Shown: positions 6,114 through 64,000 of the stretch, in pieces
Position numbering within the stretch: the first letter of the stretch is position 1
Layout: each line of letters opens with the position of its first letter
Assembly (NCBI GenBank): GCA_004431415.1
Contig: QPMI01000127.1
Span: forward strand, 1-64,000
Length of the DNA: 64,000 nt
Source: Cyanophora paradoxa CCMP329
Lineage: Eukaryota; Plantae; Glaucophyta
Reading direction: 5' to 3'
Program-made: the position numbers and the translations under genes
Notes under the pieces: generated by a model
The model's database searches: none
The model's input: the letters and a program-made list of their open reading frames with translations, nothing else
What the model was told of the DNA's origin: nothing

Positions 6114-6384
6114 CACCGCACGTTAGCGCGCCCCGAAAAAACGTCGCATCTCATCTCATCGCGAGCAAGCTTTAAGACATTTCATACGCGGCGGTACACA
6201 CACTCTGCACCATGTCTTCCGTGCTCGTCCGACCGGGCGCCCTCTCCGCCACCGACAGCTCCCTCCTCGCCGACTCCGTCGAGGTCTCCGGGGCCCTCGG
6301 GACGGCCCGGGTCGAGCGGGCCCCCTACGCGCCCTCCCCCGCCGTGGTGCGGCGCTTCGTGGCCCCCAACGAGCTCGTGCCCGG

Positions 6385-6496
6385 CCAGTGCTGGACGACG
6401 AAGGTTCCGTCCCGCCCCGCCCGCCTGAACTCCTCGATGGTCATGTGGCCCCCGAAGATCTGCAGAGCGTGCCGCGGCGGCGCCGGTCGGAGGGAC
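6385..6496 (-). pseudogene. VLTF2-like late transcription factor, fragment 3 (C-terminal)
   Basis: SLRPAPPRHALQIFGGHMTIEEFRR matches the NCLDV VLTF2 C-terminal motif PAPPR..L..FGG.MTIEEFR. Confidence 0.85.
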
Positions 6497-10257: not shown

Positions 10258-10369
10258 CCCCGCAACTTCAGCGGGTTCCGCATCTTCGGTGTCATCGGGC
10301 GGCGCGGCTCCGGGAAGACGACCCTCATGCTCGACCTCATGTACCACTACAGGCACATCGAGTCGGGGG
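10258..10369 (+). pseudogene. A32-like packaging ATPase, fragment 1 (Walker A)
   Basis: RIFGVIGRRGSGKTTLMLDLMYHYRHIESG. Confidence 0.85.
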
Positions 10370-11359: not shown

Positions 11360-11539
11360 ATGACAACTGCGGGCTACGGTCGGCTGCTGGGGAGGACTGT
11401 CACGGCCCGCTCGGTCCACCCGGTGATGCCCGAGCTAATCGGGAAGCCCGTGCCAGAGAGCACCGAGCTGCACTGCTGGCACTGTGTGCACGCCTTCAAG
11501 GGGCGGCCCGTCTCGCTCCCGTACCGGCAGGAGCGCGAG
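11360..11539 (+). pseudogene. VLTF2-like late transcription factor, fragment 1
   Basis: PESTELHCWHCVHAFKGRPVSLPY (CWxCxHxF zinc-finger half). Confidence 0.85.
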
Positions 11540-12191
11540 GTCAGGCGGCAGGCAAGGCATGGCGGCGCCCTGAGGCCCCCGCCAGCGCCCCAGACGGCCG
11601 CGGCCGCCCAGATTGCCATCCCGTCGCGCGTGTCGTCGCCGGCCGCCTCCGCCTTGCGCAGGGCCGCCGCCGCCGCGAGCTGATGGCCTCCGTTCTCGGC
11701 GGCCGGCGCCGCCGGGCCGCCCCGATGGCCTTGAGCTCCTTGTTGACGCGGGCGATCTCCAGGCGGGCGCGGGCCTTGGCGACCTCGAGATCGAGGGCAG
11801 CGCGGGCCTTGGCGGCCTCGAGCTCCTGGGCGGCACGCTGGGCCTCGCGCTGGGCCTCGGCCTTGGCGGCCTCGAGCTCCTGCTGGAGGAAGCTGTCGGC
11901 CCGGTGCGCGCGCGCACCGCCCGGTCGGTCCGTCCGCCCGTCCTTCCGTCACTCATGACGTCACACAGGGTCCGCCCTCGCCGTTCGACTCGCTCGACGA
12001 CGCTCCTGCTGCAGGGGATGCCCGACTGGTTCGACGGCGCCGGCGCCGCCATTGCCGTCGGGGCGCACCACGATGCGGTCATGCGGGCGCCCCCGCCGGG
12101 CTCGCTGCAGCCGGTCCCGTTCCACGACGGCGATGGCGGCGCCCCGGCGCCTCCGGTCCCGGGCCTGCCCGGCGCCGGCGCACGGCCGGGC

Positions 12192-12330
12192 CGCGAGCTC
12201 CCGCGCTTCATCTGCATGGGGGTCTTCTGCTCTTGGTCGTGCGCCAAGGCCTACTGCATCACGTCCGGGAGCGTTCACATGCAGCGCGCCCTGTCGTGGC
12301 TCGGGCTCCTCTACCGCCGAACGACGGGCG
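12192..12330 (+). pseudogene. VLTF2-like late transcription factor, fragment 2
   Basis: RFICMGVFCSWSCAKAY...LLYRRTTG (GxFCSWxCxKAY). Confidence 0.85.
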
Positions 12331-12434
12331 AGCAGGGCTCGTTGTCGCCGTCGCAGCCTCTGCCGCCCTCGTGGTGGCCATGGCGGCGACGCTTATGCAC
12401 CTGTGCCGCCGGCAGGGGCGGCGGTGATGGGGCT

Positions 12435-27257: not shown

Positions 27258-27289
<32 letters not shown>

Positions 27290-27310
27290 CAGCAGCAAGG
27301 GTCGGGCGTA

Positions 27311-34604: not shown

Positions 34605-36088
34605 CGCGCAGTGGTGGTGGCGGCGGGGGGGCATGCCTCCGTCGGTCGGTTCGTCGCTTTTTCGCAGTACCCCGGTAGGCGCGCGGTCCGTCGGTCGGTC
34701 CGACCCGCCCACAGCAAGCTTAGACATGGCGGGCGCCGGCGGCGGCGCGGCGGCCTCGGTACCCTCTTGATGGCGAGGGCGAGCCGTTTGCCGCCGGGGG
34801 TGCCCACGGCATCGAAGGCGGCGGCGACCTCCTCGGCGGCCTTGAACAGCTGGAAGAAAGAGACCGTCACCGCCTCGGCCCTCTGCAGGAGGAGGAGGGC
34901 GGCGCCCGCGGCCCGGCTGGGCGCCGTCCCGCCGCCGGCCCCCGCCATCAGGGCGCCGGCGATCGCGCTCACCGCCGGCAATTCCGGCGGCGCCACGCCG
35001 TAGATCGCGACCGCCAACGAGACCGCCGCGCCCCGCCCGACGCAGAGGGAGACCCGCCTGCTGCCCACGGTGCCGATGGCGTCGAAGGCGCCGGCGACCG
35101 CCGAGATGCTGTGGGCCAGCTTGGCGAACGCGTCGGTCGCCCGCTGGACGGCCGCCACCTCCGGCCCCGCCTCCGCCAGGAGGATGCTCTGTACCACGCT
35201 CACCAGCTCCCCGCGAGACCGGATGATGATCGGAGGCGGAGGCGGGGGCGGGGCTGCCTGCTGCTGGGCCGCCTGCGCCTGGGCCTGGGGCTGGGCCGCC
35301 TGCGCCTGGGCCACCTGCGCCTGGGCCCGCGGCTGGGCCGCCTGCGCCTGGGCGCCCGCCGGCGCTGCCACTGCCACCAGGGCGAGGGCCGCGGCCGCCG
35401 CCGCAGCGGCCTCCTCCCGTGCCCGGGCCGCCACCCGCTCGAGGAATGTGCCCTTCAGGCTGTGGAGGCCGAGCCGGAGCCCCCCGCCTCCATGGCCTCC
35501 GCGGCGCGCAGGGGCCCGAGCTCGGCGGCGAGCGCGGCGTAGAAGGAGCGGGTGCTGCCCCCGCGGGGGAGCATGAGCGCGTGGACCGCCGCGACGGCCT
35601 CGTCCGTCGTGATGCGGTCTTCCGCATCGAGCCGGCCGTGGAGCTCGCCCCCGCCGTGCCTATGCCGCCCCCGGGCCCGGACCCGGGCCTCCCCGCCGGC
35701 CTGGTCCCCGGGGCCGGCACCTGGACCGCCGTCCACCACGTCTCATGGCCGCATCAGCACGCTCGAGGAGCGTGTGCGCACCCTCGAATCGGAGCTCTCC
35801 GACACCAAAACAGTCTCCGCGCTGGAGGCAGCCCTCCCCCCCCTCTTGCGGGAGAAGCCGCCCGCTGGCCCCACCCGGCCGCCGCCAATGCCGCCGCCGC
35901 CGCCGGCGGCCCCTTCGCTGGCCCTGATCGCAATTGAGGATGCCCACTCCTCGGCGTCTGTGTCGGGCGGCACGTAGAAGCAGATGTATGTGTCACCTCA
36001 ATAGCCACACACACGCGTACGACTACACGGGGGGGTGGGTGGGCGCCACGGGGGCGGTAAGCGGCTCGGATGGCTCGTCGGCGAGTGG

Positions 36089-36541
36089 GGGGGTCATCTT
36101 CTCGCCGACCGAGTCGCCGGCGAACCCCACCTGGGCCAAGCACTGCCCGGGCCTCTTCATCCACTCCGAGTACGACCCCGAGGTCATCCGCGGGATCGTC
36201 AAGAACCAGCAGCGGATCGCCAAGAGCGGCCGCAAGCCCCCCGGCGTCTTCATCGTGCTCGACGACTGCATGTACAACAAGAACGCGATCTCGAACGACA
36301 AGTACCTGCGCTACGTATTCCAGAACGGCCGCCACAACGGGATCCACCTCGTGATCGCGGCCCAGTACCTCATGGACCTCGGCCCCGCCCTCCGCGGCAA
36401 CATCGACGTCATATTCGCCTGCTCCGAGAACAACGACACCACGCGCAAGAAGATCTGGACCAACTTCTTCGGCTATATGGACTACCTCGCCTTCAAGCAG
36501 GTCTTCTCGCAGGTGACGCAGGACTTCGGCGTCCTCGTCGC
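36089..36541 (+). pseudogene. A32-like packaging ATPase, fragment 2 (Walker B, arginine finger)
   Basis: GVIFSPTE...LFIHSEY...FIVLDDCMY...FQNGRH...QYLMDLGPALRGNIDVIF...RKKIWTNFFG...TQDFGVLV; lacks Walker A and the C-terminus. Confidence 0.95.
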
Positions 36542-44200: not shown

Positions 44201-44229
44201 CCGACCTGGCGGCAGGAGATGGCGGAGGA

Positions 44230-45665: not shown

Positions 45666-45879
45666 TCTTCGTCAGGCGCCATCGAGTTCCTGGTTCGGCC
45701 GGCCGCCGCGCCCCCTCCCCGTGCCGACCGCCGACCGCAGCTCGACGACGCGATCGACTCCATGCGCGATCTGCAGCACGGCCTGGTGGACATCCTGCAG
45801 ATGCGCCCGCCGAAGGACGTGACGGTGCGCAGTTCGCCCCCCCGCCGCCCGCCCGCCTTCACGTCCGGGCGCCAGGTGG

Positions 45880-46510
45880 AGGTCAGCCCCGCCCTGGCGC
45901 GGCGTGCGATCGGCGAGATCGTCGTCCGCGCCTACAAGCTCCACCCCGTACTTTTTGACGCTGGCCGGTCCACCCTCCAGCCACACATGCAGTACGCAGG
46001 CGACGTGAGCCGCGAGCCCGTCGCCCCGCTGGTCATCTCGACCCTCACCCGGAAAGGCCTCAAGATGCTGCCCGAGACCGGCTGTGTGCCCCCCCCCGCC
46101 CCCGCCCCCGCCCCCGCCCCCGCCAGCCGGTCTGACGGGCCAGGCCAGTCGCCTTCGGCAGCTTCTATGCCTTCGAGGGCACGGTGTTCGCGATGCCGCA
46201 CTTCCAGTGCGCGTTCCAGTGGTGGGAGGTTCGTGTGAGCGCGCTCAACCGCGGCGGCGGGCCGTACTCACCATGCGCGCCCCGGGCTGCAGGGTCTCGT
46301 GCTCGATCTGGACGATCGCGCCATGAACGGCAGGTTCATCGGGTACCGGTTCTTGTTCCACCAGCGGCCGGTACGTCCCCGTGCCCCCCCCCCCCCCCCC
46401 CCCGCCGGGCTGATTGGCGACAGGCCGCAAGCTACAAAGACAACGGCAGCAAGTTCGACTTCATCGCCGAGGGCGAGAGCGAGAGCGAGGACGAGGAGGA
46501 GGCTACCTGC
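45880..46510 (+). CDS. intron-containing gene fragment, paralogue of 57240-58582
   Basis: Introns 46084-46148, 46229-46292, 46371-46423 restore PLVISTLTRKGLKMLPETGFAFGSFYAFEGTVFAMPHFQCAFQWWEGLVLDLDDRAMNGRFIGYRFLFHQRP. Confidence 0.8.
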
Positions 46511-46619
46511 CCCGCCTCCCTTCCCCCGCCCCCCCCGGCCCCGGCGTCCTCCTCCCGGAGCGGCCTCCGCGAGCGGTCAGCCGCCCCGCCCGCCCCGCCG
46601 CCCCGCCCCCGCCCGACTC

Positions 46620-47556: not shown

Positions 47557-48783
47557 GTGGTGAACAACAGCAACCCGGCCGGCGGCATAATCTCGACATT
47601 ATGCCCGCCCGGCCGCCCCCCGGACGCATGTGGCCGCTGCGGGGGCGACCACTCCGAGTGTACATCGCCGGGCTGCCCCCCTGGGATGCTGCGAGATGCT
47701 TGCGGGCTATGCGGTGGTAGGGGCCTGTCCTGCACCGATCCAGGCTGCCTGCCGGGGGTCCGCAAAGACGACTGCGGCATTTGCGGGGGCGATGGCTCAT
47801 CCTGCCGCGACCCCGGATGCCTGATGGCGCACACGTACCGCAACGGGTGCGGGGAATGCACTCTGGAAGGGGCGACGCCGGGGGTCTGCCCCGCGACAGG
47901 GTGCCCCCCGGGACAGGACAAGAACAACAGGTGCTGGCAGTGCTGGTGGCAGGGCCAGGGGGATCCACCAGTGTGCGAGGACGGCTGTGAGCCGGGCTCC
48001 TACTGGTTCGAGACATGCCAGCAGTGCGTACGGTGGGGCGACCCCCTGCCCCCCCTGTGCGCATCGACCACGTGCCCTAGCGCCACCCAGCGGATCAATC
48101 GCTGCGGAATCTGCACGGAGGGGGGTGTAACGCCCTACGTCATCTGCCCCAACACAGGCTGCCGGCCGGGGGAGGATAAGCGGAATTCGTGCGGAGATTG
48201 TTTTCCCTCGGGGCAGCAGCCTGAGCGCTGCCTGAACGGCTGCCTGCCCTCGCAGCGCTGGGACCCTCGCTGCGAGGAGTGTGTCGATCGGGACGCGCCC
48301 CCCTCGGCCGCCTGCGTCCGCACGGGGTGCCCGCCCCCGGCCACAAACCGTCGCAACGTATGCGGAGACTGCGTCCCAGGTGGCTCCACCCCGATGGCCT
48401 GCCCCAGCACCGGGTGCCCGATCGGGGAGGACAGGAACAATGCATGCAGCGAGTGCTGGGAGCGTGGCAAAGAGAAGCCCGTGTGTGACAACGGGTGCCC
48501 CCCCTCGCGCCGGTTCCCCATCGCTGGCTGCCTCGACGGGACCACCTGCACAGATATCCCGGGGTACTGCGAGAACGGGTGCACCCCGGGGGAGGTCCGC
48601 CTTATCGGCTGCCTCGACCGCACGCGGTGCAGCATGACAGGCAGCTGCCGAAACGGCTGCGGCCCGGGGGAAGTCCCCATCCAGTGGTGCGTGGATGGGA
48701 CCGTCTGCACTTCGACAGGCCGGTGCCGCAACGGGTGCCTCCCTGGGCAGATTCGGGACCCCAATTTGGGCGTGTGTGTGTGA
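47557..48783 (+). CDS. Cys-rich repeat protein (5' end missing)
   Basis: D.CG.CGG, CP.TGCPPG.DKNN.C and NGC.PG repeats over about 400 aa. Confidence 0.8.
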   Translation: MVNNSNPAGGIISTLCPPGRPPDACGRCGGDHSECTSPGCPPGMLRDACGLCGGRGLSCTDPGCLPGVRKDDCGICGGDGSSCRDPGCLMAHTYRNGCGECTLEGATPGVCPATGCPPGQDKNNRCWQCWWQGQGDPPVCEDGCEPGSYWFETCQQCVRWGDPLPPLCASTTCPSATQRINRCGICTEGGVTPYVICPNTGCRPGEDKRNSCGDCFPSGQQPERCLNGCLPSQRWDPRCEECVDRDAPPSAACVRTGCPPPATNRRNVCGDCVPGGSTPMACPSTGCPIGEDRNNACSECWERGKEKPVCDNGCPPSRRFPIAGCLDGTTCTDIPGYCENGCTPGEVRLIGCLDRTRCSMTGSCRNGCGPGEVPIQWCVDGTVCTSTGRCRNGCLPGQIRDPNLGVCV

Positions 48784-50148
48784 GAAGAGGCCTAGGCATG
48801 CTGAAATTTTTCCGGGGTTTAACTGGAAAGACCCCAAAATTACCGCACAACAGATCTTTGGCTTTAACGCCCCAGGCTGTCCTCGCTGCCCCTACTCATC
48901 CCCCACATACAACTTCATTGAGAGCAATTGCAACTGTATCTGTATTCCCAACGCCCGGGAACCATCAGAAGTTACATCAGGAAATCCTTAGTGTGCTAAT
49001 GGAAGACTTGTGTGGCCATTGGAGCTTCAGCTAAGGCCAGGCCGCCCCTGCATGTAGTCCGCGTGGAGGAAACCAACCATACATCCAGCCCCGCCCGCCC
49101 CCCACCCCCCGCCTAGGCCTAGTGTCTGGGCAGTCTGGTGGCTTGTGTCTCGATCGCCAGCCCTCTCGGCTCAAGTACATACCGTACATCGGCTCAAGCC
49201 ATTCGGAAGCTTCATCGGGTCGGTAGAGATGAGGTTCAATTTCGACAGCACGTGCACGTGCACTACCCCGACCCTGAGCACACGGGCTTCTCCTGTCCCT
49301 TGGCCCAGCACTCGCGGCACCGGTTGTTCTTGTCCTGCCCTGGGGGGCACCCCGTCGAGATGCAGATCAGCCGCAGCGGCGCGTCGGCCCGGACGCACTC
49401 CATGCACCCCGGGTCCATCTTTGGTGCCGCCGAAGAGGATGTCGGCGACTTGGACGCCGGAACCATGGCTGAACCTCAACACGCTTGCCTACATCAACCG
49501 AGTTCTGGCCCGGCGCGGGGAGCTCCCGGTAGTCGCGGCCATGCAGCCCCCCCCCGTGCACGCTCCCTGGTCGCCCGTTTCCTCCTCTCCGCCGCCGCCT
49601 CCGTCGTGCGGGGCTGGCGGGCCGCCCGCCACGCCGTCCTCCGCATCCTAGCGGCCGTCCGCCGCCGCCGCCTCCGCCGCCGGCTCCCGGCGACGGGGGG
49701 CGTCATCCTCAGGTCGCCGGCCTGCTCGTTCAATACCGCAAGGAGGGCGGAGATCATCTGCTGCGGGTCGCAGCCCCCTCCAACGGGCACATTCCGCACG
49801 GAGCCGCCGGGTCCGTGGTAGGTCACGACGGGCTGGATCCGCCAGGGGTTGCCCGGCGCGGCCGGCCGGGCGCAGAGGCGCAGGACAGCGGCGCCCGGCC
49901 CCCCACGGCGCACAATGCCCTCCGCACAGGAGAACGGCAGGCACTGAGCCGCCCCGGCGAGGAGGGGGCCGCCGGCCCACGAAAGGGCGTGCAGGGCCCG
50001 CCGCGCGAAGAACGTCCACACGAGGGGCTCGTGGCGCCCGAAGAGCCACGACGAGGGTGGGCGAGGGTGCCGCTTTCCGCCGCCGCCGAGGATCACGCCC
50101 GCCAGCCCGGCCACGCCCCCGGTCCCGCCTGCCTTTGCGGCGGCCTCC

Positions 50149-50245
50149 TCGCGGCAGTAGTAGAGTCGGAACTGGGACTTGGATATCCACTGGTGGTTGG
50201 AGTCGCGGCAGTAGTAGAGTCGGAACAAGGACTTGGATATCCACT
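50149..50245. repeat. 54-bp tandem duplication (about 1.8 copies)
   Basis: tcgcggcagtagtagagtcggaac..ggacttggatatccact at 50149 and 50203; minus strand encodes WISKSxFRLYYCR. Confidence 0.85.
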
Positions 50246-50439
50246 CGCGGGCCGTGGTCTTGTTTATGTCGCTACGAGTACTAGACTAGCTATAGGTTCT
50301 CGTGCGCTGTATGGTACGCCGTCGGCCTGGTCGCCGCCATCATGATGCGGTCGGCCCACGTGTCGAGGAGGGGCCGGTCGTTGAAGACGTCGGGGCTCGC
50401 CCAGAGCGCCGGGGGCGGCATGCGGCGATCCGGGAGCCG

Positions 50440-51013
50440 CAGCCAGGCCTACGAGGAGGCGATGCTCGCCACCGTCCCGGGGGCGCGGCGCGGGACCATG
50501 AACTACACGACGGCCCGCGCCCTCCCGGGGGAGTTCGCCGTCCTGAGCGTCCGCCAGGTCTCGCTGCCGGGCGGGCGCGTCGTGAGCCTCGTCGCGGTGT
50601 TCCGCGCCGAGGGCGGGGCAGGGGCCGCCGGCGCGGGGGGGGACCTCCTGCGCCCCGTGTCCTCCCCGCAGAACGTCTTCGGGTCGCAGGCCTTCGCCCC
50701 CTGCCGCATGTGGCTGGGGCCGGCGGGGCCGCGGTGCATGCCGAGCGCCGTCCAGGCCCTCCGGTCGCGGGAGATCCTCCCCTACGCGGTGGTGCACGCG
50801 GACCGGGTGCTCGAGTTCGGGGCGAGGCTCTTCGGGATCCTCGAGGAGGGCGAGGAGAACGGGGTCGCGTGCGGGCTCGAGATGGTCGGGGGCGGGCTCG
50901 GGGCCGAGGTCGAGGAGTCCCTCCGCCCGTTCCGCGCCGCGGGGGCGCGCCTGCCGGCCTGGCACCCCGTGTACCAGCGGCAGCGGCCGGGCGGCGGTGG
51001 CGGCCGCGGGTAG
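50440..51013 (+). CDS. hypothetical protein fragment
   Basis: Natural reading frame with strong GC3 bias. Confidence 0.45.
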
Positions 51014-51085
51014 CCACGCGCCGGCCCCGCCCCCCACCCCCCAGTGTTCATTTTTTTTTCATCCGAATCTCCTAAACTGCGGCGA

Positions 51086-51586
51086 ATGGCCGATGACCCG
51101 AAGCGACCAGGGGGGGGAAGGAGGGCAACCAGGTCCATGACCGCCGGGGCCGCGGCGGCACGGGAGCGCTGGGAGCGTGCGGTCAGGTTCTATAAGGCGA
51201 GCAAGGCGCGGGAGCAGGCGCGTTTTCTTGAGCACTGGAAAGGCCGGGCCCGCAACCTCTCGGAGCTTCGAACGGCGTTTCAACCGAATGCCCCCGTCAA
51301 GGTGGACGATGGCACCCTCAGGTTCGAGGGCGGGGCCGCCGAGTTCACCCTCGGACGGGGCACCACGGTGCGGATGAAGGGGCGGTCGGGCCCGCTGTTC
51401 AAGTATGCACCCGCGCCGGCTGACTTGAGAAAGGAGCACAAAGTGTCGACGGTCTTGAGCACCCATGCGCCCCCTGGTGGCATTCGCAGCACTGTGGTCG
51501 ACTGCTTCATGGAGGCACAGGGGCCGCGCAGGAGGTGCGTGTTCGAGAAGGGGCGGTGCATCTCCGCGCAGGATGCGCTCGCCGAC
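51086..51586 (+). pseudogene. putative kinase N-lobe fragment
   Basis: TLGRG..., LFK, KEHKV, CVFEKG resemble the Gly loop, Lys, helix-C Glu and hinge; joins 8065 in frame. Confidence 0.45.
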
Positions 51587-53684
51587 ACGGGCACGGACGC
51601 GTCGGCGGCGCTCGCCGCCTTGGGGATGACCGTGGATGAGTGCTTTGGCGACCCCCATGAGTCCTGCTGCGACAAGTTGAGGAGCCTCGGGCTGTGGCAG
51701 GAGCGCCGGATGACGGGCGTCACGGACCCCTCGGCCCAGCGGTTCGTGACCCCCACGGACTCATTCTTCGGGCCCCCGCCCCCGGGGGCCGAGCCGAACT
51801 TCAACCACATGTGGCGGGCCTGGCACTGGGCAATCAAGCGGCTCGAGATCGACCAGAACAGGCGGGGCAGGGCGGGGGGGGCCAGCGAGGAGGATGCGGT
51901 CGTGGCTTTGTTGCGGGGGGTTATACGCTCTGGATAGGTACCTCCGGGCCCCTTCCCATTCCATCAGGCTTTGAGAGCCACGAAAGATCATGATGCTAGA
52001 GGGGTGCTCCTGGACCGCTTTCATCACGTGCTGCAGAATCCAGTCCAGCGCCGCCGCCGCAGTCGGCGGCGGCGGCGTGGGACCCGCATTCGCACCGCCT
52101 AAGGGCCGGAAGCCGGCCTGAACAGTCGGGGTCTGGCGACCCGCGACCGGGGTCGCCGCCGCGGCCACCGCCGACGCCGGCGGGACCGAGGCTGGGCGGG
52201 AGCCGGGAGTCCGGCGGCCGCCGCCGGCCAAAAGCCCCGGCCCGATCCGGGGCCGGGCGCCGGCACCGGCATGGCGACAGGGACAGCGCCGAAGCCGGCG
52301 GTGGCGGTGCCGGCCATGTCGACGAGGTCCGCGGCAATGCCCACGAGCTCGACGGTCACGCGGTCGAGGGACATGCGGGACGGGCCGCGGAGGAGGGCGA
52401 CGACCAGGGGGTTGCACAGCAGCGCCGCCACGCACGTCTGCGCCGTCGAGTTCGACCCCGCCTCGTCGCTCCTCGTCGTCTCGGGCGTCGAGGCGGTGGA
52501 CGCCCGGTCCTGCCTCGTGGCGCGCTACGACGGCATCGGCGCCCAGTCGCGGGGCCGCGGGCCTGCCCTCCTGCCGCGGCCCGCCGCCCTGCGGAGGGAG
52601 GAGCGCTGGCAGAACGATGCACAGGGCGGCGGCGGCGCCGGCGTCGCCGAGGAGACAATCGCCGCTGGCCTCTCGGAGCTGATCGACCGGATCGCGCGAA
52701 AGAGGCAGCTGGGCAGGGCGCGGGTCGCGCACGACCTGGTCCGCGCCGTCCTCTGCCTCGACCGGGGCTCTGCCCCGGGTCCGGAGCCCCAAGGAGGTGC
52801 TGCGGTCCGCGGCCGCCGAGGCGGCCTCGGCGGCGGACCGGCGGCGCCGCAGCGTGCGCTGGTTCGGCGCGCCGCCGCCGAGGCCCCTTCAGCGGGTCCT
52901 GGCCCACCACGGGATCGCCACGACGCTCATCCCCTAGTCGCCCCACCACGACGCCGCCTGCTGCTGCTTGAAGTCAAAGAACCCACGATGACCCGGCTTT
53001 GTGTGTCCCGGAATTCTCCCCTCCCGGCCGGGGAGGGGCTTCCCGGCTTTCACGGCAGCCGAGCACTGGCACTGCAAGACCGTCTACTGCGGCGGAGGCG
53101 GCGGTACGTTCGGCTCGGCCCGGAGCGGCAGCAACCCGTTCGACGACCCGTTCTTCCGGCAGGACCAGGGGGGCCGGTAGCTAGCTAGCTGAAGAAGGCG
53201 TACCGCCCGAGCTCGGCCGGCTCTGGCGCTGGGTCTTGGGCCCCTCCTCGTGCGGGCCGGCGGGGCGCGAGGCCCTCCGCCGCGGCATCACCGCCTCGAT
53301 CAAGGCCCGCTGCGTCTGCTCCGACGGCGACCCGATCGGGCTCGAGCCCTGGCGGGGGGGGGGCGGCGGAGGGCGGGGCCGAGGCGCACCGTCAGGAGCG
53401 GGCACTGCTCCTGGATCTCCTCCGGCAGTTGCCGTCGCCGTGGCCTGCGATGCCTGCGAGCTGCGTGCGTGCCGCGCCGCGCCGGGCTCCCCGTACTACG
53501 TCTACCCCATCCCGGGCGAGTCCTGGCACTCCTGGGACACCCGCGCTGCCAACTACGTCATGTGCCGCCCGGGGCTGGTCATCGCCGCCGGGGGGGCGGC
53601 GGTCGCCCTCCTCGTGGCGTCCCTCCTCCTCCTCGCCCACTTTTTGTCTGCGCCACAGAGGCGTAAGTGAGCCCCGCCTCCGCC

Positions 53685-53909
53685 ATGTCCTCCGACAACA
53701 CCTTCCCCGTCATCCGAGGGTCCGCTCTGATCGAGGCGCTCGTCCTCGGGATTGCCGTATTCGGAGTCGCCTACATGCTGAAGAAGATGTCGCTCTGGGA
53801 CACCGTGAAGCGCCTCATCGCAGTCGGCATCGGGATCGAGCAGTCCCTCCCGGGTCCGGGTGCGGCAGGCGGGTCCGGCGCCGCCCCCCGCGGGTGGAAC
53901 CTCGCCTGA
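53685..53909 (+). CDS. small membrane protein
   Basis: MSSDNTF...LIEALVLGIAVFGVAYML; stop followed by T-tract. Confidence 0.5.
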   Translation: MSSDNTFPVIRGSALIEALVLGIAVFGVAYMLKKMSLWDTVKRLIAVGIGIEQSLPGPGAAGGSGAAPRGWNLA

Positions 53910-53960
53910 CATTTTTTTTCCTCCCCTGTAGCTACACACAGCCCGACGCGCCAGCTGCAG

Positions 53961-54705
53961 ATGCCGTCCACTTCCACGAAGAAGTCGAAGCGCGCGGCCG
54001 CGTGCCGCGTCAAGCCGACCAGCCACCCGTGCCGTCGCGAGAAGCCTGCGTGCGGCGGCGCGGCCGGCGACCCGAACTTCACGCGCGAGAAGATCCGGGA
54101 GTTGAGGTGGCCGCAGAAGGAGAAGGTCATCGGGCAGCTCTACAAGGACATCCAGCAGTACGGCGGGCGGGTCAATGACGCGCAATGCCTGCCCCCCATC
54201 CACGGGTTCCGCCCCACCGTCGTCCAGTCGATGAACCTGCTCGCCCGGGCGCAGACGTTCCTGAGCAACATCATGGCGTTCGCGGCCAAGGCGAACCGGG
54301 GCGTGTACGAGGCCGCGGTCGACGAAACGCACATCAACGCCTCGCTTGCGTTCCTCCTCCGCACCAAGGAGTGCCTGCCGGAACCGTTCAACAAGCCGGC
54401 GTGCAGGCTCCAGGCCGAGTCCGCCGCGGCCCTGCTCGAGGGCGCGACGAAGAACTTCACCCCCCCGCCTGTCCGGGCGCCATTCATTGGCGAGAAGGAG
54501 GTCCTCAAGTTCCTCCCGAAGCTCGAAGTCGCCACAGCTCAGCAGGCGACCGCGCTCGGGAAGCAGGCCGTGGAGGCCTTGGGCGAGCTCTTCAACTTTG
54601 ACCCCGTCTTCCAGGTGCTGGTGGACTCCCAGGGGCGCGGGGACTCGGCCGCCCGCAAGCTCGAGGACATCTTCAACGACATCGTCTTCTACGGGGCGTG
54701 CCGGC
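53961..54705 (+). CDS. hypothetical helical protein with basic N-terminus
   Basis: Long GC3-biased frame. Confidence 0.55.
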
Positions 54706-54708
54706 GGC

Positions 54709-55300
54709 ATGCCGACCAAGAAGAAGAAAGCCGGCGGCCCCGCTGACGACTCGTGCCGGGGCGACGTCGATCCCTCCCTCGCCGACCTCCTTGAGCGCAA
54801 CGAGGTGCTCCGGAAGGCCTCGGAGGACGCCCGTGCAGCCGCGGGGACCAGCTGTGGCCTCGCGAAAAGCAAGGTGCGGGTCAAGCACGCCAACGCGAGC
54901 TTCGAGGCGCCCGTCGTGCTCGACGCCATCAAGAATGCGGCGATCATGGTGTCCGGGGCGGTGAGCATCTGCATGGCCAGCGCCAAGCGCACGGGGGGGG
55001 AGGCACCTGTCGCGAGCGACGTCTCGGACCTGCTCGCGGACCTCGCCAGAGAGGGGCTGAAGCTCTCGGGGGGGCCCGAGGCGAAGAGCAAGCTCCTCCC
55101 CAAGGCGCCCTTCCACGGGGGGTTCAAGAGCGACGAGGCATTCCGGGCCTTCCGCCAGGGCGTCACGCACGCCGGGAACGTCTCCCTGGGCGCGGACACG
55201 GAGACGCGGAACCTCGCGCTGAGAGTCGTCGACGCGGTGTTACGGGACGCGCAACAGAAAAGCCGGCACAACAAGAGGCAGCGGGAGGAGCCCGTGTCGC
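54709..55300 (+). CDS. hypothetical protein with basic N-terminus (MPTKKKK)
   Basis: Long GC3-biased frame starting immediately after the previous one. Confidence 0.5.
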
Positions 55301-55519
55301 CGCCCCCCCCTGCCCTCCCTGCCCCGAACTGGCGGCCCCTGCCCCGTGGTCAGGATCCGCTGGTATATAGGCCGAGAAGGGCGGGCATTGAGGGGATGTC
55401 AGGCCCCCGTCTCACGTACGAAGAGACGAAAGGCCTGTGGTACGACGGGACGGACTGGGTTCCGCGCTGATCGCCATGATACCTTATTCATTTCACACAT
55501 TACACGCCTAGCTGCTGCT

Positions 55520-55835
55520 GCTGCTGCACACCGCCCACGCTCCTCTTGGCGAGGTACACGGGGATGCGGGACTTGGCGTCGGCCATGAAGTGCACCGTGA
55601 ACGTGTGAGGCGGTGGGTCGCTCCCCGTGAAGTTCAAGAAGCGGTCCTCGAAGATGCAGATCCCAGCGCGGTGCCGCGGGAGGACGCGCTTGCAGAAGGC
55701 CCCCTGCTCGTAGGCCGGCCCAGCCCAGCTGCAGTCGGGGGTCCCCGGCGACCCGGCGCACGCCCACTTTCCGGCCGCACCCTCTCGCCAGGCGGCGGGG
55801 TCGTAGCACGACATCCAGAAGCGGACGATCTGCCT
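55520..55835 (-). pseudogene. GT34-like glycosyltransferase C-terminal fragment
   Basis: FWMSCY...W...CSWAGPAYEQGAF...LN...VHFM (EQ.A and HF motifs). Confidence 0.5.
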
Positions 55836-55954
55836 CCCCGTGGACCCCGAGTCCATTCGCCGGGACCTCCGTGACCTCCAGCAGCGCGCCATCCAGCGGT
55901 GCCTGGAGGCCAGCGTCCTCGTGGTCCGCGCGGGGCCCCTGGAGGACATGGGGG

Positions 55955-56130
55955 CCGCCGTCGACGACGCCCCGAGCCCGGACCGTCGGCTCTTCATCAC
56001 GCACGCGCACACGGACCACGTGCGGGCCGCGGGGCCGCGGGCCAGGGCGGCGCTCGCCGCCGCCTGCCCCCACTGCACGGAGGCCACCGCCCGCCTCCTC
56101 GGGCTGAGGGCGTACGTCCGGCTCGAGGCC
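55955..56130 (+). pseudogene. metallo-beta-lactamase-fold nuclease (SNM1/Artemis-like) fragment
   Basis: LFITHAHTDHV...HCTEATARLL. Confidence 0.7.
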
Positions 56131-57239
56131 GGCGGCGACACGCCCTCGGTCTTCCGGGGGAGCGCGGGGGTGCCCTTCCTCGCCGCCCAGTTTTGCTCCT
56201 TCCTCTGCGGCGGCCCCGTGTCGGCGGAGCCCGGGGGCCTGGCCACCGGGGCCCGGGCCTTCCAGGACCTCTGCAGCCTCGTCAAGATCCGCATCCCCCA
56301 CGCACGGCACCGGCAGTACGGCCCGCTGGTCGACATGGGCGGCCTCGTCACCCTCGCGCGACTCTCCGGCACGGCGCGGGCCCTGGCGATGCAGGGGGAG
56401 CTGGCTCTCCAGGACCAGGCCGGTGGGGCCGCCGAACTCCAGGGCCTCGGCCTCCTGCAGGGCCACCCGCGTGGGCACGGGCGCGGAGGTGCCGGTGCTG
56501 ACACCGTCGTCCCCGTCCGCCTTCCACTGCATCGCGCCGGCGACCCCGAGCGCGAGGCGCTCCCCCCCGAGGCCGGCGCGGATGATGACCGCCCCGTGCC
56601 CGCCGGCCTCGATGCGCGAGACGACCTCCTCGATCGACGCCAGGGTCGTGGGCGTGGGGGGAAGTCGAGCTTCATCTTACACAACGGCAACTTTCTGGAG
56701 TTCGTTTCGCACGCCTCCTCGCCATCACGGCGATCGCCGAGGAGATGCAGCGGGCCGGCGCGGACCCGGACGCGTTCGCGGCGGCACTGGGGTACAGGTA
56801 CACCGGCGGCACGCTCGGCCTCGCGCTGGGCCTCCTGGGCGGCGCGGGCCGCTGCAGAAGGCTACACGCGGCGAAACCGGTTCAAGTTCACAGCGAGCTC
56901 CAACAGTTCCGACCTGGCCCCCCCGGGCTCCCCCGGGCCCCCCCGGGCTCCCCCGGCCCCCCCGGGCTCCCCCTACCCCCCCCCGGGCTCCCCCCGGCCC
57001 CCCACGCTCCCCCTGCCCCGCGGCTCTCCCCCGGCCCCGCGCGCCCCGCCGCCGCCGTGCTGTGCGGGGACCGGGTATGCTGTTTTGCCGCGAGGGGGGC
57101 TGGACTTTGCAGTGTGGCCTCGTGCGGGGAGCAGATGCAAAAAAGCGGAGGAGCTTGGGGTGGGAATGGGCCCGGATAGAGAGTCCAGGGGGGGGGGCCT
57201 CCGGCCAGGTCTCCCCCCCTGCAGCAGCCGGCCGGCTTC

Positions 57240-58582
57240 CCCTGGGGCTCAAGTCGGTTCTGAAGGTGACCGATGCTGAACTGAGAGTGCTGAAGGAGCG
57301 TGCACTCGCCGCCGAAGGTCGGTCTCCGCGCCCCCGCGCCCGCCAACTTGAGCCGCCGACACGCGCGCCGCGCCGAAACGCAGGCCAGGGCGCTGGGGCC
57401 AAGTTGTTCCAGGCGTTCAGCGCGTTCGAGAAGCTGAGCGCCTGCACGCCGGGGCGCCCGTACTACATCATCTGCGAGAAGCCGGAGGAGCCCCGCGACG
57501 GCTTGATTCTGCGGGTCCGGGTCATCCGGTTCAAGGAGGAGGAGCCCGACGATGATATCGTGGGCGACATCGCCAGTGAACCCATCGGTGCGCGTGCGCG
57601 CATGGCGAGGCCGCGCCCTGTGTCGACCCCGTGCCGCGCGCCGCCGCAGATGACACGCCCCCGGGCTTCGAGGAGGCCGTGAAGGAGGGGCGGTGGGCAA
57701 GTAGCGACAAAGAGCAAGTGCAGTTCAGGTTCACCGATATGAAGCACGTCCTCAACGAGGATGAGATCGACAGGGACTGCTACTTCTGTGGCGAGGGGAC
57801 CCGCAAGCACTGGTGCGCGTGCACCGCCGCCGCGCGGGCGCCGCGGCCTGAGACGGGGGCGGCGTGCACGCAGCATCACGTGCCATCTCCCGGCGTGCGA
57901 CGGTTGCAGCGGGCTCACGCTGAGGCTCAGCCTGGACCAGGACGGGGATTCTAGCCGCAGCAGCACGCCCGCCGAACTCTCAGCCTGCACGCTGGCTGCG
58001 TTCCGCCCGATGGGCTTCTTCGCGTGCGGCCGCGAGGGCGCTCCCGCCGCGCTCCGGCTCGGCAAGCTGGACCGCGAGGCCGGCGGGCTGGTGCGCTTGC
58101 CTTTCGATACGGGTCTACCGCCGGGCGCTCACCCCGGGGTCCGCCGGGCGTGCGCGCGCGCCAGGACTGCATCTTCTGCCGCCGCTTCCACTCCAACCTG
58201 GACGACGACCGCCGGCCCTTCCTCCCGCTCGTCATCTCGGGCTTCACCCGCGAGGGCATCGAGTCGCTGCCCACGCTTGGACGTGAGCCCGCCCCGCCCC
58301 CCTCCCCGCCCCCCGCCCCCCCGCCGGCCCGACACCCCGCTGCAGTCGCATTCGGCGCCTTCTGTGCCTACGAGGAACAGTGTTCACGGTTCCTCACTAC
58401 CAGTGCGCGTTCCAGTGGTGGGAGGTGCGCCCCCCCCCCTCCCTCCTCCTCCCGCGCCGGGGCGCTCGTTCGCTGGGCTAAGGCTGCGGCACGCGCCGAC
58501 GCAGGTACATAAGGTCTGTCCGGACCAGGAGGCTATGAACAACAGGTTCATCGGGTACATGTTCTCGTTCTGCCAGCGGCCG
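57240..58582 (+). CDS. intron-dense ADD/PHD-like zinc-finger gene fragment
   Basis: Introns 57318-57383, 57588-57649, 57813-57873, 58091-58164, 58283-58345, 58425-58504 and a donor at 58583; spliced CYFCGEGTRKHCITCHLPACDGC...DCIFC; one 1-nt deletion near 58374. Confidence 0.75.
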
Positions 58583-58633
58583 GTGCGCCCCGCCCCCGGC
58601 GCCGCGGTGGACGGCGGCGCCCGGGACTGGCAG

Positions 58634-59029
58634 GAGCGCATATCTGTGATGGAGAACATCGAGCGCAACGCCGGCATCATCCTGCGCAGGGCGCGGCAGA
58701 CGCTCCAGACGCTCACCGTCCGCGTCGACCGCATGGGGGCCGTGCTGCGAATGCCCGGGCTTTTGCCGCCCTTCGAGCTCGAGGTCTCCCGCTGGCTCAT
58801 GCTCGCCGGCGGTCACTTCCCCCTGCTCCGGGTGAGAGGCCGGCCCGGGGCGCGCGCGGCGGCGACTGACGCCCGCGCCCGGGCAGGAGATCGTGCTGGA
58901 CGGGGGGCGCATCAGCCGCCCTGCGGACACCCGGTTCCAGGTCTTCGGCCTCCGGGTCCACGCGCCGTCCCTGCGCGCCTTCCGGCTCCTCAACGCCTCC
59001 ATCGTGGCGGTGTCGGTCGAGGAAGCCAG
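58634..59029 (+). CDS. intron-containing LRR-like gene fragment
   Basis: LQTLTV, FPLLR|EIVL (intron 58832-58886 with ACTGAC branch point), APSLRAFRL; donor GTGAGA at 59030. Confidence 0.6.
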
Positions 59030-59339
59030 GTGAGAGCGCGCGCGCACCGGGGCAGCAGCACGAGACGTACTACTCGGTCTGGGCTGCTCCGAACCGGAGC
59101 TCATACTACTTGCTTGACCGCCGGCGACGCCGGCGGGCCGGTTGGATCAAAACGCTCTCCGGTGCTTCAGCGCACGCTGGCCAGCTTCCTGGGCGCGAGC
59201 GATCGCTGGATTTCGCCAGGTGGCCAGGCGATGAAGGTGCGCGCGCGTGTACCCCCCCCCCTTCCACCCCCCCCCAGCCCGGCGGACCGATCAATCGCCG
59301 CCGCCATGATGACGTCGCCGACAGCAGCAGCAGCAGCAG

Positions 59340-59672
59340 CAGGGCCGAGGCCGTCGTCCGGTGGACCTGCGCGTAGGCCCAGGCGATGGCGAGGCCGACG
59401 CCAAGGAGGACGAGGGTCCCGCCGATGAGGACCCCGCCGATGAGCCAGAGGACCGAGTAGAACTTGCCGACGGCCGCGAGGCCGCCTACGGCCGCGCCGG
59501 CGAGGCCGCCTCCGCCGCCCGGCGCCGGCGCGGGGGGGTAGTAGTACGGTACCGGTGCTGGTGGAGGAAGGTATGCGTACGGCGGCGGCGGCGGCGGGTA
59601 GTAGTACGCAGCTGGGGGGGCCGCCGGCGGCGCGGGGGGCGGGGGCGGGGCTGCAGTGGTGGCAGTGGCCAT
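59340..59672 (-). pseudogene. DUF3592-like membrane protein paralogue, N-terminal fragment
   Basis: Pro/Tyr-rich head then GGLAAVGKFYSVLWLIGGVLIGG TM; breaks at a (CTG)n tract. Confidence 0.6.
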
Positions 59673-59731
59673 TAAATATTCAACATTCAATCGATTCCGT
59701 GAAAATAATAGGATGCTCGCTGGCGGCCGCC

Positions 59732-60242
59732 CTACTTACGCAGCATCCTCAGGGCGTTCGCGCCCCCCACGAAGACGGCGCCGGCCTTGCTCGAGCGGGC
59801 GATGTACCACTGCGAGACGGACGCCACGAGGATGATGACGCCGACGACGAAGAGGATCCCGACGACGAAGGCGAAATGGGGCCACGGCTGGTGCACGCTG
59901 CCGGCGGGGTTTGCGGGGTCGTACCGCACCTCGACGCCGTCCCCCGCTCTGTAGGCCGAGCCCGAGCGCTGGATCGAGATCCGGCGGTCGTCGACCCGCA
60001 CCCCACCGGCGGTGACGAAGGATATGTCCACGTCGCACGTGTAGGTGGGCGTGGAGGAGTCCTTGGAGCCGCCCCGCGAGCAGGCGTGCACCCGCGTGAC
60101 CGTGGCGGTCGCGGCGCTCGTGTGGGCGTTCGAGCGGGCCCGCGAGATGGCCCAGGCGGTGCCGACGAGGAGGAAGATGCCCCCGATGAGGCCGCCCACG
60201 ATCAGGTTCACCTTGGAGGTGACACGGCCGACGTCGGCGAGG
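59732..60242 (-). pseudogene. DUF3592-like membrane protein, C-terminal part
   Basis: TM, ATATVT, YRAGDGVEVRYDPANP, TM. Confidence 0.75.
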
Positions 60243-60491
60243 TCCCCGCCCAGTGGGAGGCCGGGGCCAGCGGCCCCAGCGACAACGATAGCGCCGTCAC
60301 CGTCGCGCGGGCCCTCGGCCTCGTCTTCGTCCTCGACGGCCGGTCGTTCGAGGCTTACAACCCGGCCACCGAGCCGGACCCCGCCGCGGCGGCCACGCTG
60401 GCCCTCGAGCGCCTGCTGGTGGCCTCGGGCCCCGCCGAGCTGCGGTTCGTCGGGGAGCGCACTGCGTGAAGCTCGGGTTGCTAGTTAACGA

Positions 60492-60600
60492 TGCTGTCAT
60501 CGCGCCTTTTTGAAAAAGTGACCACGTACCCCCCCCATTCGGCCGGACGGTCCGACCGGGCTGCTCAGTTGCTGTCATCGCGCCTTTTTGAAAGAGTGAC
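60492..60600. repeat. 31-bp direct repeat pair with 47-bp spacer
   Basis: tgctgtcatcgcgcctttttgaaa(a/g)agtgac at 60492-60522 and 60570-60600. Confidence 0.9.
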
Positions 60601-61074
60601 GTGGAGGGCGCCCTGCCGGTAGTCCCACACGACCACCTTGGCAGCGGCCCCCGTGTGCATTGCGACCAGGGCCAGGCCGTTGACGCTGTCCACCGCCGCC
60701 CCGACGACCGCGCGCCGTGCCTCCTCGCCGGCCAGGTCCGACGGGGCGAAGACGCCGGCGCATGCGATCGCCTGGATGGCCACGCATTTCGGGGGTTCGT
60801 CAGCAGGGCACGCCCCACCGGTACCGCCGCTGCTGTCGTCTCCATCCGGCGGCGCCGGCAGCAGTGTAGGGGACCCAAAGATAACGACGATGGTGGCGGC
60901 CGACATGAGGGAGAGGAGGAGGAGGGTGGTGGCGGCGGCGGCGGCGGAGGCCATATTGCGGGCACGTGCGTGTGTGTTTCGTGGCTGTGATATTTATACA
61001 ACTAGCTGCTCAACTACCGAGGGCCTCCCTCCTCCGCAGCGGCGATGCCGCTGAGTGCCATGAGGTCGCGGGCG

Positions 61075-61700
61075 GGCATTGCCTGCCAGTGGACGAACTC
61101 CTCGGCGAGGCGGGCGATGCGGCGGTCGAAGGAGCACTTGCGGACCCTGCCGTGGACGCGCCAGACATCTGGGTTGAACCTCAGCCAGACGAGTGGGACG
61201 CGCGAGGCCGCCGCAAGGACCGCCTCGCGCATGCGCTCATCGGCGAAGTCGTAGTCCCTGTGCGCGTGCTGGTCGACCTCCACGACGATGATGCGGTCGG
61301 GGAAGAGGAAGAGGTTGTCCGGACGGCGGACTTCGGGGTCGAAGAGCCGGACCTCGCTCGGGAGGGCGCTGAATGACCTGTTGCGGTAGGTGGGCCGGCG
61401 CCCACCGAGCGCGGCCGTGAGGGCCACGATGACGCGGTCATCGGCGGTGTCGCAGCCCTGCTCCACACGTGCCTGGTGCCTGGGGCAGAAGCGTGGACAG
61501 GGCCCCTCTCCCTGGGCGGGAACGGTGCAGCCGCTGTCGTGGGTGCAGCGGAACTTCAGGCGGCGGCACCCAGCAGCTGATCTGCTGAGGAGCCGATGGT
61601 TCAAGCAGTAGAACATGCTCCGAGGGGGGCCGTCGGGGTCGGGGCTGCGGCCGCAGCGCTCGTCGAAGGTGCAGTCCGCCGCACCGTGCTCTCTGCAGAA
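61075..61700 (-). CDS. NCLDV Vsr/DUF559-like endonuclease with N-terminal Cys/His motifs
   Basis: FC..H / YC..H motifs, then RRPD...IIVVEVDQHAHRDY...VWLRFNPD. Confidence 0.8.
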
Positions 61701-62469
61701 GCGACTGTCTGGGAGCGAGGGGGGCCATCGAGGGACAGCCGCCGTCGAACTTGCAGACGCTGGGCTTGGAGAGGAGAGTAGCATCCTTCCGGTGCGCCGC
61801 CGTCGCCGAGGCCGAGCGCACCCTGATGGAGCTAGCGGAGCGCGTGGCGGACGCGTCCGCGCGCGGGTGCTACACTATGCCCCTCCTCGGGGTGCCCGCC
61901 GGGCCAGACGGCCGCGAACCCCTGCCGCGAGTGCATGTCCCTTGCAGACGCCGCCCGCCCCGCCGGCTCCTACCTCTGCTCCTACGGCTGCCCGCCCGGC
62001 ATGTTCTCCGTCAGCGCCTGCGACGATGGGCCCGGCGCCCCGCCCTGCAACACCACAGGCCTCTGCGCCAACGGCTGCCCTCCAGGCGCCACAAGATGCC
62101 CCTAACTCACATCCAGTGCGAGTCAGCTAGCTGCTCTCCCTCGCCTACGCCGGCGCCCCCGGCCGGCCCGCCCTCTCCCCTCCTCGCGACCGAGGCCGAG
62201 GCCGCCTGCGCCGCGGTCGCGGGGGCCACGCTGCCCGGAGTGCCGGCGACCCTCCCCCGCCTCACTCTTCTCTCCGTCAGCGGCCTCTGGCCGCCGGCGC
62301 CGCGCACCCCGCGGCCGCCGCTCGCGGCGACGGAGCCGTACCGCCTCCACCACGGGCTGTCGGGATCACGTTGCTTGAGCCCACGCGCCCGATGGTGATC
62401 GACCCCACGTCGCGCCCGCTACCAATGCTGATCGAGTTCGCCCCGGGCGGGGCGTCCAGCCCCCCAACG

Positions 62470-63075
62470 GCAACGGCTGCCCCCCGGGCTCGCAGAGACT
62501 CACAGGTTGCACAGACCGCATTGGCGCCGTCTGCTCGACCACCGGCCTGTGCGGAAACGGGTGCAGGCCGGGGGCAAGTGTGATCTACGGGTGCGTCGAA
62601 GGCCCCACGTGCTCCTTTGATGAAAAATGCGCCAACGGATGCGCCCCAGGCATGCGGCGCGCCGCGGGGTGCGCAGAGGGGGACACATGCTCAATCGACG
62701 GGAAGTGCGGCAACGGGTGTTTCCCAGGATTGCGGCCTGTCTTCGGCTGCCCCGAAGCACCCCTGGGGGTGCCTGTCTGCTCTCGTGATGGCAAATGTGC
62801 GAACGGCTGCTTCCCCGCGGAGTCCCTCATTTTCTGCGAGGAGGGGCCCGTCTGCTCGATCGGCGGCACTTGCGCAAACGGGTGCCCTCCCGGCGAAAAA
62901 CCGCTCGAGGGGTGCTCGGAGGGCCCGACCTGCTCGCGGGACGAAACGTGCGCCAATGGGTGCCCTCCCGGGACCCGGCCTTTGCACGGGTGCGAGGAGG
63001 GGTATGGCAAGTTCGTCTGCTCCCAGGATGGGAACTGCGCCAACAAGTGCCCGCCTGGGAGAGTGCCCCTGAACG
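62470..63075 (+). CDS. Cys-rich repeat protein internal fragment
   Basis: About eight GP.CS.DG.CANGC.PG..P..GC.E repeats, same family as 8460-8862. Confidence 0.8.
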
Positions 63076-63239
63076 GGAAAAACCCAGGGAGGAGGGTAGA
63101 CCCAGGCGCGGCTGCCCTCCCGCGCACCCGCGTACCAAGCCCGATCGCCCCCGGTCATGGCCAGGCGCCCGCCCCAGGCAACCAGCCCTACCAGTGCGAA
63201 GGCGGCGATGGCGCGGGTGATGGTTGCCATTGCAAGCTG

Positions 63240-63560
63240 CTCAAGGTGTGGGTAGGAAAATATGTATATATATATTTATACTGCTACTCCAACCAAAAAA
63301 GTGATATACTCTGCTAAGTTTTTTTAACGTATATCGATACACTGTTCGAAACTAAACATCCTCCTCCAAAAAACTATATGTCATATAAACTCTTCAAAAG
63401 CGTCAAATCAACATTGTGACGGCCAGGTATACGTAAAGAAACAGGAACAACTTATAACTCATCGAACTGAAAGCGCCTCTGCGGGCATCACGCGCGCTTC
63501 AAACGTCGTGTCCATGGAAGCGAGGCTTATGCCAATACATTAACATATATATAACGTGCG
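63240..63560. other. AT-rich non-coding island
   Basis: Abrupt drop in GC with TA and A tracts and no ORF. Confidence 0.6.
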
Positions 63561-64000
63561 CGCGCGCGGCGCCTGCTCTTCTACTCAGCCCGGCTGGCGC
63601 CGAAGCTCGCGATCCAGTTCTCCCACTCAGGCACTGTGGCGCCGGCGCCAATGACAGGGGTCATAATCTCGATCTCCGGCGGCGCCGGCGCCGGCAGCAG
63701 CGGTCTTACGTAGATGGATCTGTCGCACCAGTGGCTCTCGGCGCTGGAGCGCCGGTCCGTGCGCGGCCGCGGCCGGCGCCGATGACGGAGCCACACTAGG
63801 AACGCGACGACGACGATGAGAGTCTCCTCGAGCGAAACTTGATCGGTCGGCATCGCGCCGGCCGCCGCCGCGCGCGCGCGCGCCTGCTGCTGCTGCTGCT
63901 GCTGCTCCTTCTCCACTGCCGCCGCCGCGCCGCGCGCGCCGGGGGCCGGCGGGGGGCTGGATCCCCACGCGTACCGCAGCGTACGTACGCGGGGTTATAC

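Follow-up and report, generated by a model that had tools for sequence, protein, structure and literature searches.

The 57-kb gene and its family

The window, that is, the whole stretch of 64,000 nucleotides analysed here from one contig of the glaucophyte alga Cyanophora paradoxa, contains an intron-dense gene near 57 kb. Three members of its family are known: the 57-kb gene, a fragment at 45741-46500 in the same window, and the full-length P0004 (521 aa), which lies on another contig going by its name. The features of the 57-kb gene, the piece that follows it and the second paralogue are as follows.

57225..57317 (+), exon 1, aligned with P0004 from residue 17-19, with a paralogue transcript on 57222-57318
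57318..57383 (+), intron 1 of 66 nt, GT-AG, missing from the paralogue transcript contigs of runs X22 and X24
57384..57587 (+), exon 2, open frame and P0004 alignment
57588..57649 (+), intron 2 of 62 nt, GT-AG, transcript length tested jointly with intron 3
57650..57812 (+), exon 3, where a putative zinc finger rich in Cys begins, open frame and P0004 alignment
57813..57873 (+), intron 3 of 61 nt, GT-AG, transcript length assessed together with that of intron 2
57874..58090 (+), exon 4, open frame, P0004 alignment and paralogue transcript contig
58091..58164 (+), intron 4 of 74 nt, GT-AG, transcript length difference in X22 and X23
58165..58282 (+), exon 5, open frame, P0004 alignment and paralogue transcript contig
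58283..58345 (+), intron 5 of 63 nt, transcript length difference in X23, same position in the 46-kb paralogue
58346..58424 (+), exon 6, one-base gap at about 58374-58375, from the spliced frame and from short-read and transcript contigs
58425..58504 (+), intron 6 of 80 nt, GT-AG, same position in the 46-kb paralogue, colinear with P0004
58505..58582 (+), exon 7, the last with family homology, reaching residue 335 of 521 of P0004
58583..58633 (+), seventh donor at 58583, then a break to an unrelated piece; paralogues carry another exon here
58634..59031 (+), unrelated intron-bearing piece joined in frame, with an intron at 58832-58886, from splice signals and reading frame
45741..46500 (+), second, more distant paralogue fragment, from homology alignment and intron positions

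Six full introns plus a seventh donor had been described in the initial annotation, and these were confirmed as GT-AG introns at their positions. They are short and GC-rich as described, with lengths of 61-80 nt and a GC content of 0.77-0.89 versus 0.55-0.73 in the exons; the donors are GTCGGT, GTGCGC and GTGAGC, and all six acceptors are CAG. Nine donor-like motifs were counted on the plus strand of the gene versus 1.5 expected at the window rate (P ~3e-5). The 5' limit of exon 1 is uncertain, either an acceptor at 57224 or a frame that is open without interruption from an ATG at 57077. Removal of the introns restores one frame apart from the loss of a single nucleotide, as had been noted: 269 codons are open from 57242, and after a break at about 58374-58375 a further 42 are open. 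The GC content by codon position of the spliced gene is 0.62/0.46/0.87. Short-read contigs of four runs were compared over 44001-64000, and in all four the contig over exon 6 exceeds the window by one base, with a single gap. This additional base is present in the paralogue transcript, the frame is uninterrupted in both paralogues, and the gap is most likely an error of the (long-read) assembly. The link at 58400-58428 depends on a 29-base overlap common to paralogues.

At the point where the 57-kb gene breaks off, both paralogues have a different next exon. The DNA past the seventh donor is an unrelated intron-bearing piece, and the gene is therefore truncated. The junction within 58583..58633 is bridged by short-read contigs in all four runs. 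The 57-kb locus is a real intron-dense gene fragment, cut after its seventh splice donor. The unrelated piece at 58634..59031 gives an LRR/F-box-like impression, and no Pfam match was obtained for it. Across 57077-59033 the truncated gene and this piece share one frame, with or without splicing of 58583-58633; this chimeric reading frame exists on paper, and no sign of its expression was found. No RNA run was listed among those containing the 57-kb copy, and long exact RNA pieces were absent from it and from the viral-type pieces in 43000-59400; neither result was weighed as evidence. The 57-kb copy is probably silent, as a fragment of a pseudogene.

The spliced product of the 57-kb gene shows 60.7% identity to P0004 over 326 columns, and the alignment is colinear through all six introns. 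In the 46-kb paralogue, introns were located at 45825-45875 (probable), 46084-46148, 46229-46292 and 46371-46423, and three intron positions are common to this fragment and the 57-kb gene. As these intron positions are common to diverged paralogues, they are older than the duplication.

The initial annotation had proposed spliced RNA as a check. Transcript-like contigs were found in X22, X23 and X24 (depth 3.8-4.5; all from one study, and the RNA nature of these runs is a guess). They match exons 1, 2, 4, 5 and 6, and their scattered differences encode P0004 residues, so that they belong to P0004 and not to the 57-kb copy. Their exon spacing is shorter than that of the window by 66, 144, 59 and 63 nt. 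The first of these values is exactly intron 1 (X22, X24) and the last exactly intron 5 (X23), while 144 nt equals introns 2 and 3 (123 nt) plus 7 codons of indel against P0004, and 59 nt equals intron 4 (74 nt) minus 5 such codons (X22, X23). The codon offsets were taken from the P0004 alignment, and the transcript coverage extends over introns 1-5, with intron 6 outside it. The X21 contig continues into intron 1. By length, introns 1-5 are absent from the P0004 contigs; this intact relative is transcribed, at low depth, and spliced at the positions of introns 1-5. A second contig at 58559-58560 was considered as a fourth family copy and dropped, its letters giving the P0004 residue, and P0006 was rejected as a family member, being repetitive unrelated sequence.

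The intact family member is predicted from its Cys motifs to be a multi-zinc-finger protein. In a Pfam search with the exons, 0 of 9 queries gave a family match, and P0004 gave only a zf-B_box-like match that is not significant (E 1.2-1.3). Two predicted folds of P0004 are of low confidence (pLDDT 37 and 30) and uninformative, and an atlas search with P0004 returned no usable match.

Giant-virus pieces in the window

The surroundings of the gene had been described as mostly viral, and the pieces are indeed largely of giant-virus type. Ten of the 119 segments pass the Pfam cut-off, including DVNP, YqaJ, PCNA_C and DUF5832. The YqaJ piece covers profile positions 55-144 of 150, and of PCNA only the C-terminal part is present. 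Pieces assigned to viral gene types are listed below.

9599-9871, DVNP-family piece (viral nucleoprotein), Pfam E 2e-12, in a glaucophyte genome
10264..10368 (+), A32-type ATPase, Walker-A piece, ending at the start of the 36-kb piece
36088..36539 (+), A32-type packaging ATPase, central and C-terminal parts, intron-free, cut at both ends, from the atlas search
11453..11548 (+), FCS-type zinc-finger gene, piece 1, residues 3-32 of the L004 protein
12195..12344 (+), FCS-type zinc-finger gene type, piece 2, residues 29-78 of the L004 protein
6382..6495 (-), FCS-type zinc-finger gene type, piece 3, inverted and 5 kb away, residues 77-114 of the L004 protein

The 36-kb ATPase piece (150 codons) has an atlas score of 0.96, with the Pox_A32 set making up 26 of 30 matches, and the Walker-A piece matches Pox_A32 at E 0.032, below the cut-off. 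P0002 has the ATPase join intact, its residues 1-10 corresponding to 10264..10368 and its residues 10-76 to the sequence from 36090 onward. The ATPase is thus represented by two abutting halves that lie 26 kb apart, and the window junctions of these halves have a near-identical 10-base word in common, ending in a G-run. This pair is the only place where a microhomology was seen, the other junctions being without a reference. The three FCS-finger pieces are consecutive along L004, which is one intact giant-virus protein, and probably derive from one gene copy. By its motif, this gene would be VLTF2-like. PCNA, which is also fragmentary in the window, adjoins the FCS-finger gene in four of the nine giant-virus loci compared. 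Scans of viral contigs with the ATPase, and with a pattern for the FCS-finger gene, gave no match, and a PDB search with the ATPase gave 2 weak irrelevant matches.

Over the matched parts, which are fragments only, no introns interrupt the genes for the A32 ATPase, PCNA, YqaJ, DVNP, DUF5832 and the FCS finger. Spliceosomal introns in virion or core genes, as in mirusviruses, were not found over these fragments, and a Pfam scan of the 119 segments, without mirusvirus profiles, gave no Duplodnaviria morphogenesis genes; the ATPase is of A32 type. Intact core viral genes, a trait of an intact latent GEVE, were likewise absent, the ATPase, FCS-finger, PCNA and YqaJ genes all being partial.

A self-trained segmentation, in which coding segments of at least 90 nt were counted, gave about 84 coding segments with a median of 300 nt and mixed orientation. 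A stop terminates 29 of these, and the strand changes between abutting segments 12 times. In a separate count of neighbour pairs, the strand switches in 41 of 91. Segment ends also arise from introns and assembly indels, and the phage control trained poorly (16 segments, 10 stop-ended, 0 strand switches, in a nearly one-stranded genome). Since this control is weak, the counts are descriptive only. By this rough method the window resembles the products of chromothripsis, in which tens to hundreds of pieces are arranged at random, both in their order and in their orientation.

Several other features were observed in the window. The word GTACCCC followed by a GACC/GTCC-type word occurs nine times versus a shuffle mean of 1.0 (maximum 5 in 200 shuffles), at 558(-), 24252(+), 28918(-), 31211(-), 32425(-), 34667(+), 56795(-), 59249(+) and 60526(+). 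An ATG lies 40-70 nt downstream in eight of the nine, the pattern having been picked after the sites were seen, and the composite is a candidate promoter element of virus or host. A family of Cys-rich repeat proteins, with no convincing Pfam family, is represented by many intron-free pieces scattered over both strands (8460-8705, 16740-17040, 44240-45680, 47557-48780, 49278-49421, 61880-62100 and 62470-63080). A Gly_rich_2 gene is present in two 231-nt copies, 12783-13013 and 22638-22868, which are 95% identical and differ in their flanks, and a related domain lies near 41400-41716. At 61041-61776, contigs have about twice the neighbour depth in all four runs, indicating a two-copy piece that encodes an unassigned protein and may, by impression, be a mobile nuclease gene.

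The window as chromosome sequence of the alga

The initial annotation had treated the window as a sample of pieces. This premise was wrong, and bridging contigs reveal continuous genomic DNA. Twenty DNA runs of one organism, with about 100 million contig letters each, contain 96-97% of the locus words, and the only matches of the window proteins were gene models of Cyanophora paradoxa in EukProt. Over 44001-64000, contigs of up to 6.6 kb span the apparent junctions with 0 other letters and small indels only. Contig depth is 54-115x and flat within each run across viral-type and intron-bearing pieces; each piece is single-copy, and contigs pass through unbroken. Of the eight junctions that were tested, seven are bridged by contigs of each of the four runs; the remaining one, upstream of the 57-kb gene (~56970), sits in a C-rich repeat and is bridged by none of the contigs listed. 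The window DNA is chromosome sequence of the alga.

An artefact of assembly or library, in which chimeric reads or concatenated fragments produced the patchwork, might be suspected from the resemblance of the sequence to concatenated fragments, from the flagging of 7 of the 20 runs containing the locus as possible sources, and from the breaking of short-read contigs at low-complexity tracts. However, the same 7 junctions are also bridged in X8 and X19, two runs without such a flag, whose contigs differ from the window by small indels and are therefore not copies of it. For 44001-64000 an artefact is largely refuted, and we regard it as highly improbable.

Origin of the family and of the patchwork

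The genome of Cyanophora paradoxa is reported to have about 100 Mb, 67.6% GC and 9.2 introns per gene with a mean intron of 86 bp (PMC6704402), from which a host density of 3.9 introns per kb of gene was computed. The density in the 57-kb gene is 4.5/kb, in line with the original description of it as host-like. Two paralogues in the window, as had also been stated, were recovered (the 57-kb gene and 45741-46500). They had been taken to suggest that the source pool was small and hence an intron-rich virus. The first part stands, as consecutive viral-gene pieces recur within 64 kb and point to a small and local pool. The second part is not supported: the DNA is algal chromosome, the matched viral parts are without introns, and no viral homologue was found. 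The search for homologues on viral contigs that had been proposed gave 0 matches by DNA pattern and 0 with P0004, both of which reach close relatives only. Protein, atlas and metagenome searches, of limited reach, returned no homologue outside this species, viral or cellular, and no member was found in other glaucophytes. Two metagenome loci from the pattern scan were rejected as chance, both having 36% GC and only the 8-residue pattern matching. A large host family with intact loci had been named as the result that would overturn the viral proposal; most of this was seen, in the form of the intact, transcribed and spliced P0004 on another contig, but the family is small.

Because of the host-level density, the intron-free matched viral parts, the missing viral homologue and the spliced P0004 elsewhere, host origin of the family is favoured, and we consider it fairly likely. 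The intron-dense gene is likely ordinary for the host, with no evidence of an intron-rich virus. A doubtful alternative is that the family was virus-borne, the virus having intron-bearing host-like genes in the manner of punuivirus latency genes, so that the whole patchwork would be one shattered viral genome. The presence of 2 of the 3 known members in one virus-rich window agrees with it, and is not what sampling at random across a genome of 100 Mb would yield; the single copy of all pieces and the small source pool also agree. Codon usage does not discriminate between origins: the family differs from the viral pieces at P = 0.02, yet two intron-free sets differ more. Precedents exist in a punuivirus (10.64898/2026.10.09.758095) and in mirusviruses (PMC12768974), and an intact latent virus is reported to bear expressed, spliced genes (61 of 506 in the punuivirus). 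Against a viral source stand the full-length, spliced and transcribed P0004 on another contig, the absence of introns in the matched viral genes, and the density of 4.5 introns/kb, which is at the host level and above that reported for punuivirus (2.5 introns per intron-bearing gene) and the genome averages of mirusviruses (up to 0.65/kb).

The punuivirus GEVE of Chlamydomonas reinhardtii resembles the window in its host-style GT-AG introns among giant-virus genes, but it is described as intact and active, with 2.5 introns of mean 176 bp per intron-bearing gene (10.64898/2026.10.09.758095). In the window, by contrast, core genes are in pieces, and a gene with at least 7 short introns has its intact relative on another contig. 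Mirusviruses share short GT-AG introns (~80 bp) with the 57-kb gene; however, these are reported to be enriched in the virion genes of a Duplodnaviria virus (PMC12768974), whereas the markers of the window are of A32/PCNA/DVNP type and intron-free in their matched parts. Introns of host style, or stretches resembling introns, are also present in pieces at 25714-27420, 43583-44215, 53316-53389, 58634-59031 and 63916-63988, and a PHD-like finger lies near 26900-27110 (E 0.007, below the cut-off).

As a whole, it is reasonably probable that the 57-kb locus is a truncated host-type gene within a shattered and re-joined mixture of a decayed endogenous giant virus and host DNA. A Nucleocytoviricota genome would have integrated in a Cyanophora chromosome, after which breakage of the virus and of the adjacent host DNA would have yielded short pieces, joined again by their ends and each left once. 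The joining may have proceeded by end-joining at microhomologies, to judge from one junction pair. Two paralogues would have neighboured the virus insertion before the shuffle, and such a local cluster would explain why 2 of 3 members lie in the window. The 57-kb locus would then be a 3'-truncated copy from a small Cyanophora-specific family with host-type spliceosomal introns.

Nucleocytoviricota genes in a host chromosome at host copy number, as seen from gene models, flat depth and giant-virus homologues, agree with a decayed GEVE. GEVEs have already been reported in C. paradoxa (PMC12344493), together with CpG methylation and silencing in this species in general, not at the 57-kb locus. 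Decayed GEVEs of C. paradoxa (PMC12344493), Acanthamoeba (PMC12210455) and Euglena (PMC12455990) are like the window in that genes of Nucleocytoviricota type sit in the chromosome of a protist, at host copy number, with broken genes mixed with others. Their decay is described as truncation, deletion, duplication, recombination and invasion by mobile elements, whereas in the window nearly all genes are in pieces of a few hundred bases, with order and orientation mixed and little internal decay. The CpG observed/expected ratio in the window is 1.04, i.e. not depleted, which fits a recent event. No literature on a GEVE shuffled at such fine scale was found, and gene-level data may exist in supplements.

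Many pieces in random order and orientation are also reported for chromothripsis and the small outlier chromosome of Ostreococcus, whose rearrangement is tied to virus resistance (PMC5498103, PMC13390643). That chromosome is described as mostly host-derived with rare viral bits of 50-70 bp, and its shattering is disputed in a 2026 paper; in the window, viral genes dominate and a single event is not implied. In plant mosaic NUMT/NUPT insertions, foreign fragments are end-joined at microhomologies of 1-7 bp in non-uniform orientation (PMC7037861). The donors in the window, unlike theirs, comprise intron-bearing genes of nuclear type as well as a giant virus, and near-identical source copies are not left. 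With this precedent, the joining of viral and host fragments to a concatemer might have preceded their insertion, as could happen in a cell surviving an infection, and the mixed orientation, the undepleted CpG and the limited decay within pieces would be in keeping with this. Copied host pieces should nevertheless have near-identical intact sources, yet contigs are unbroken at single-copy depth, which favours cutting over copying, and two paralogues of a tiny family are improbable by genome-wide sampling. A concatemer formed before insertion is accordingly quite unlikely.

A further, speculative and rather improbable proposal is that integrated giant-virus DNA is actively cut up by Cyanophora and joined again to form silent patchwork loci, which would supply antiviral small RNAs. 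The provirus would thereby be disabled, a eukaryotic archive of viral fragments would be kept, and neighbouring host genes would be bystanders. Exonic small RNAs and RdRP homologues are reported in C. paradoxa (PMC3700990).

As the 57-kb gene is ordinary for the host, it does not point to a new intron-rich virus, and since intron-bearing giant viruses have already been published (10.64898/2026.10.09.758095, PMC12768974), such a virus would be no new kind. Gene models and virus-gene counts in regions of this sort are chimeric: the public models P0003 and P0005 fuse unrelated fragments, P0005 joining at least four, and such proteins in reference sets are artefacts. Of more interest than the gene is its setting, a probable shuffled provirus. 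If the account of a shattered and re-joined provirus is true, an endogenous giant virus has been cut up at intervals of about 300 bases and combined with host exons over at least 64 kb. A provirus would thereby be inactivated, and exons shuffled, in a way that the GEVE accounts cited here do not describe and that is testable in a cultured alga.
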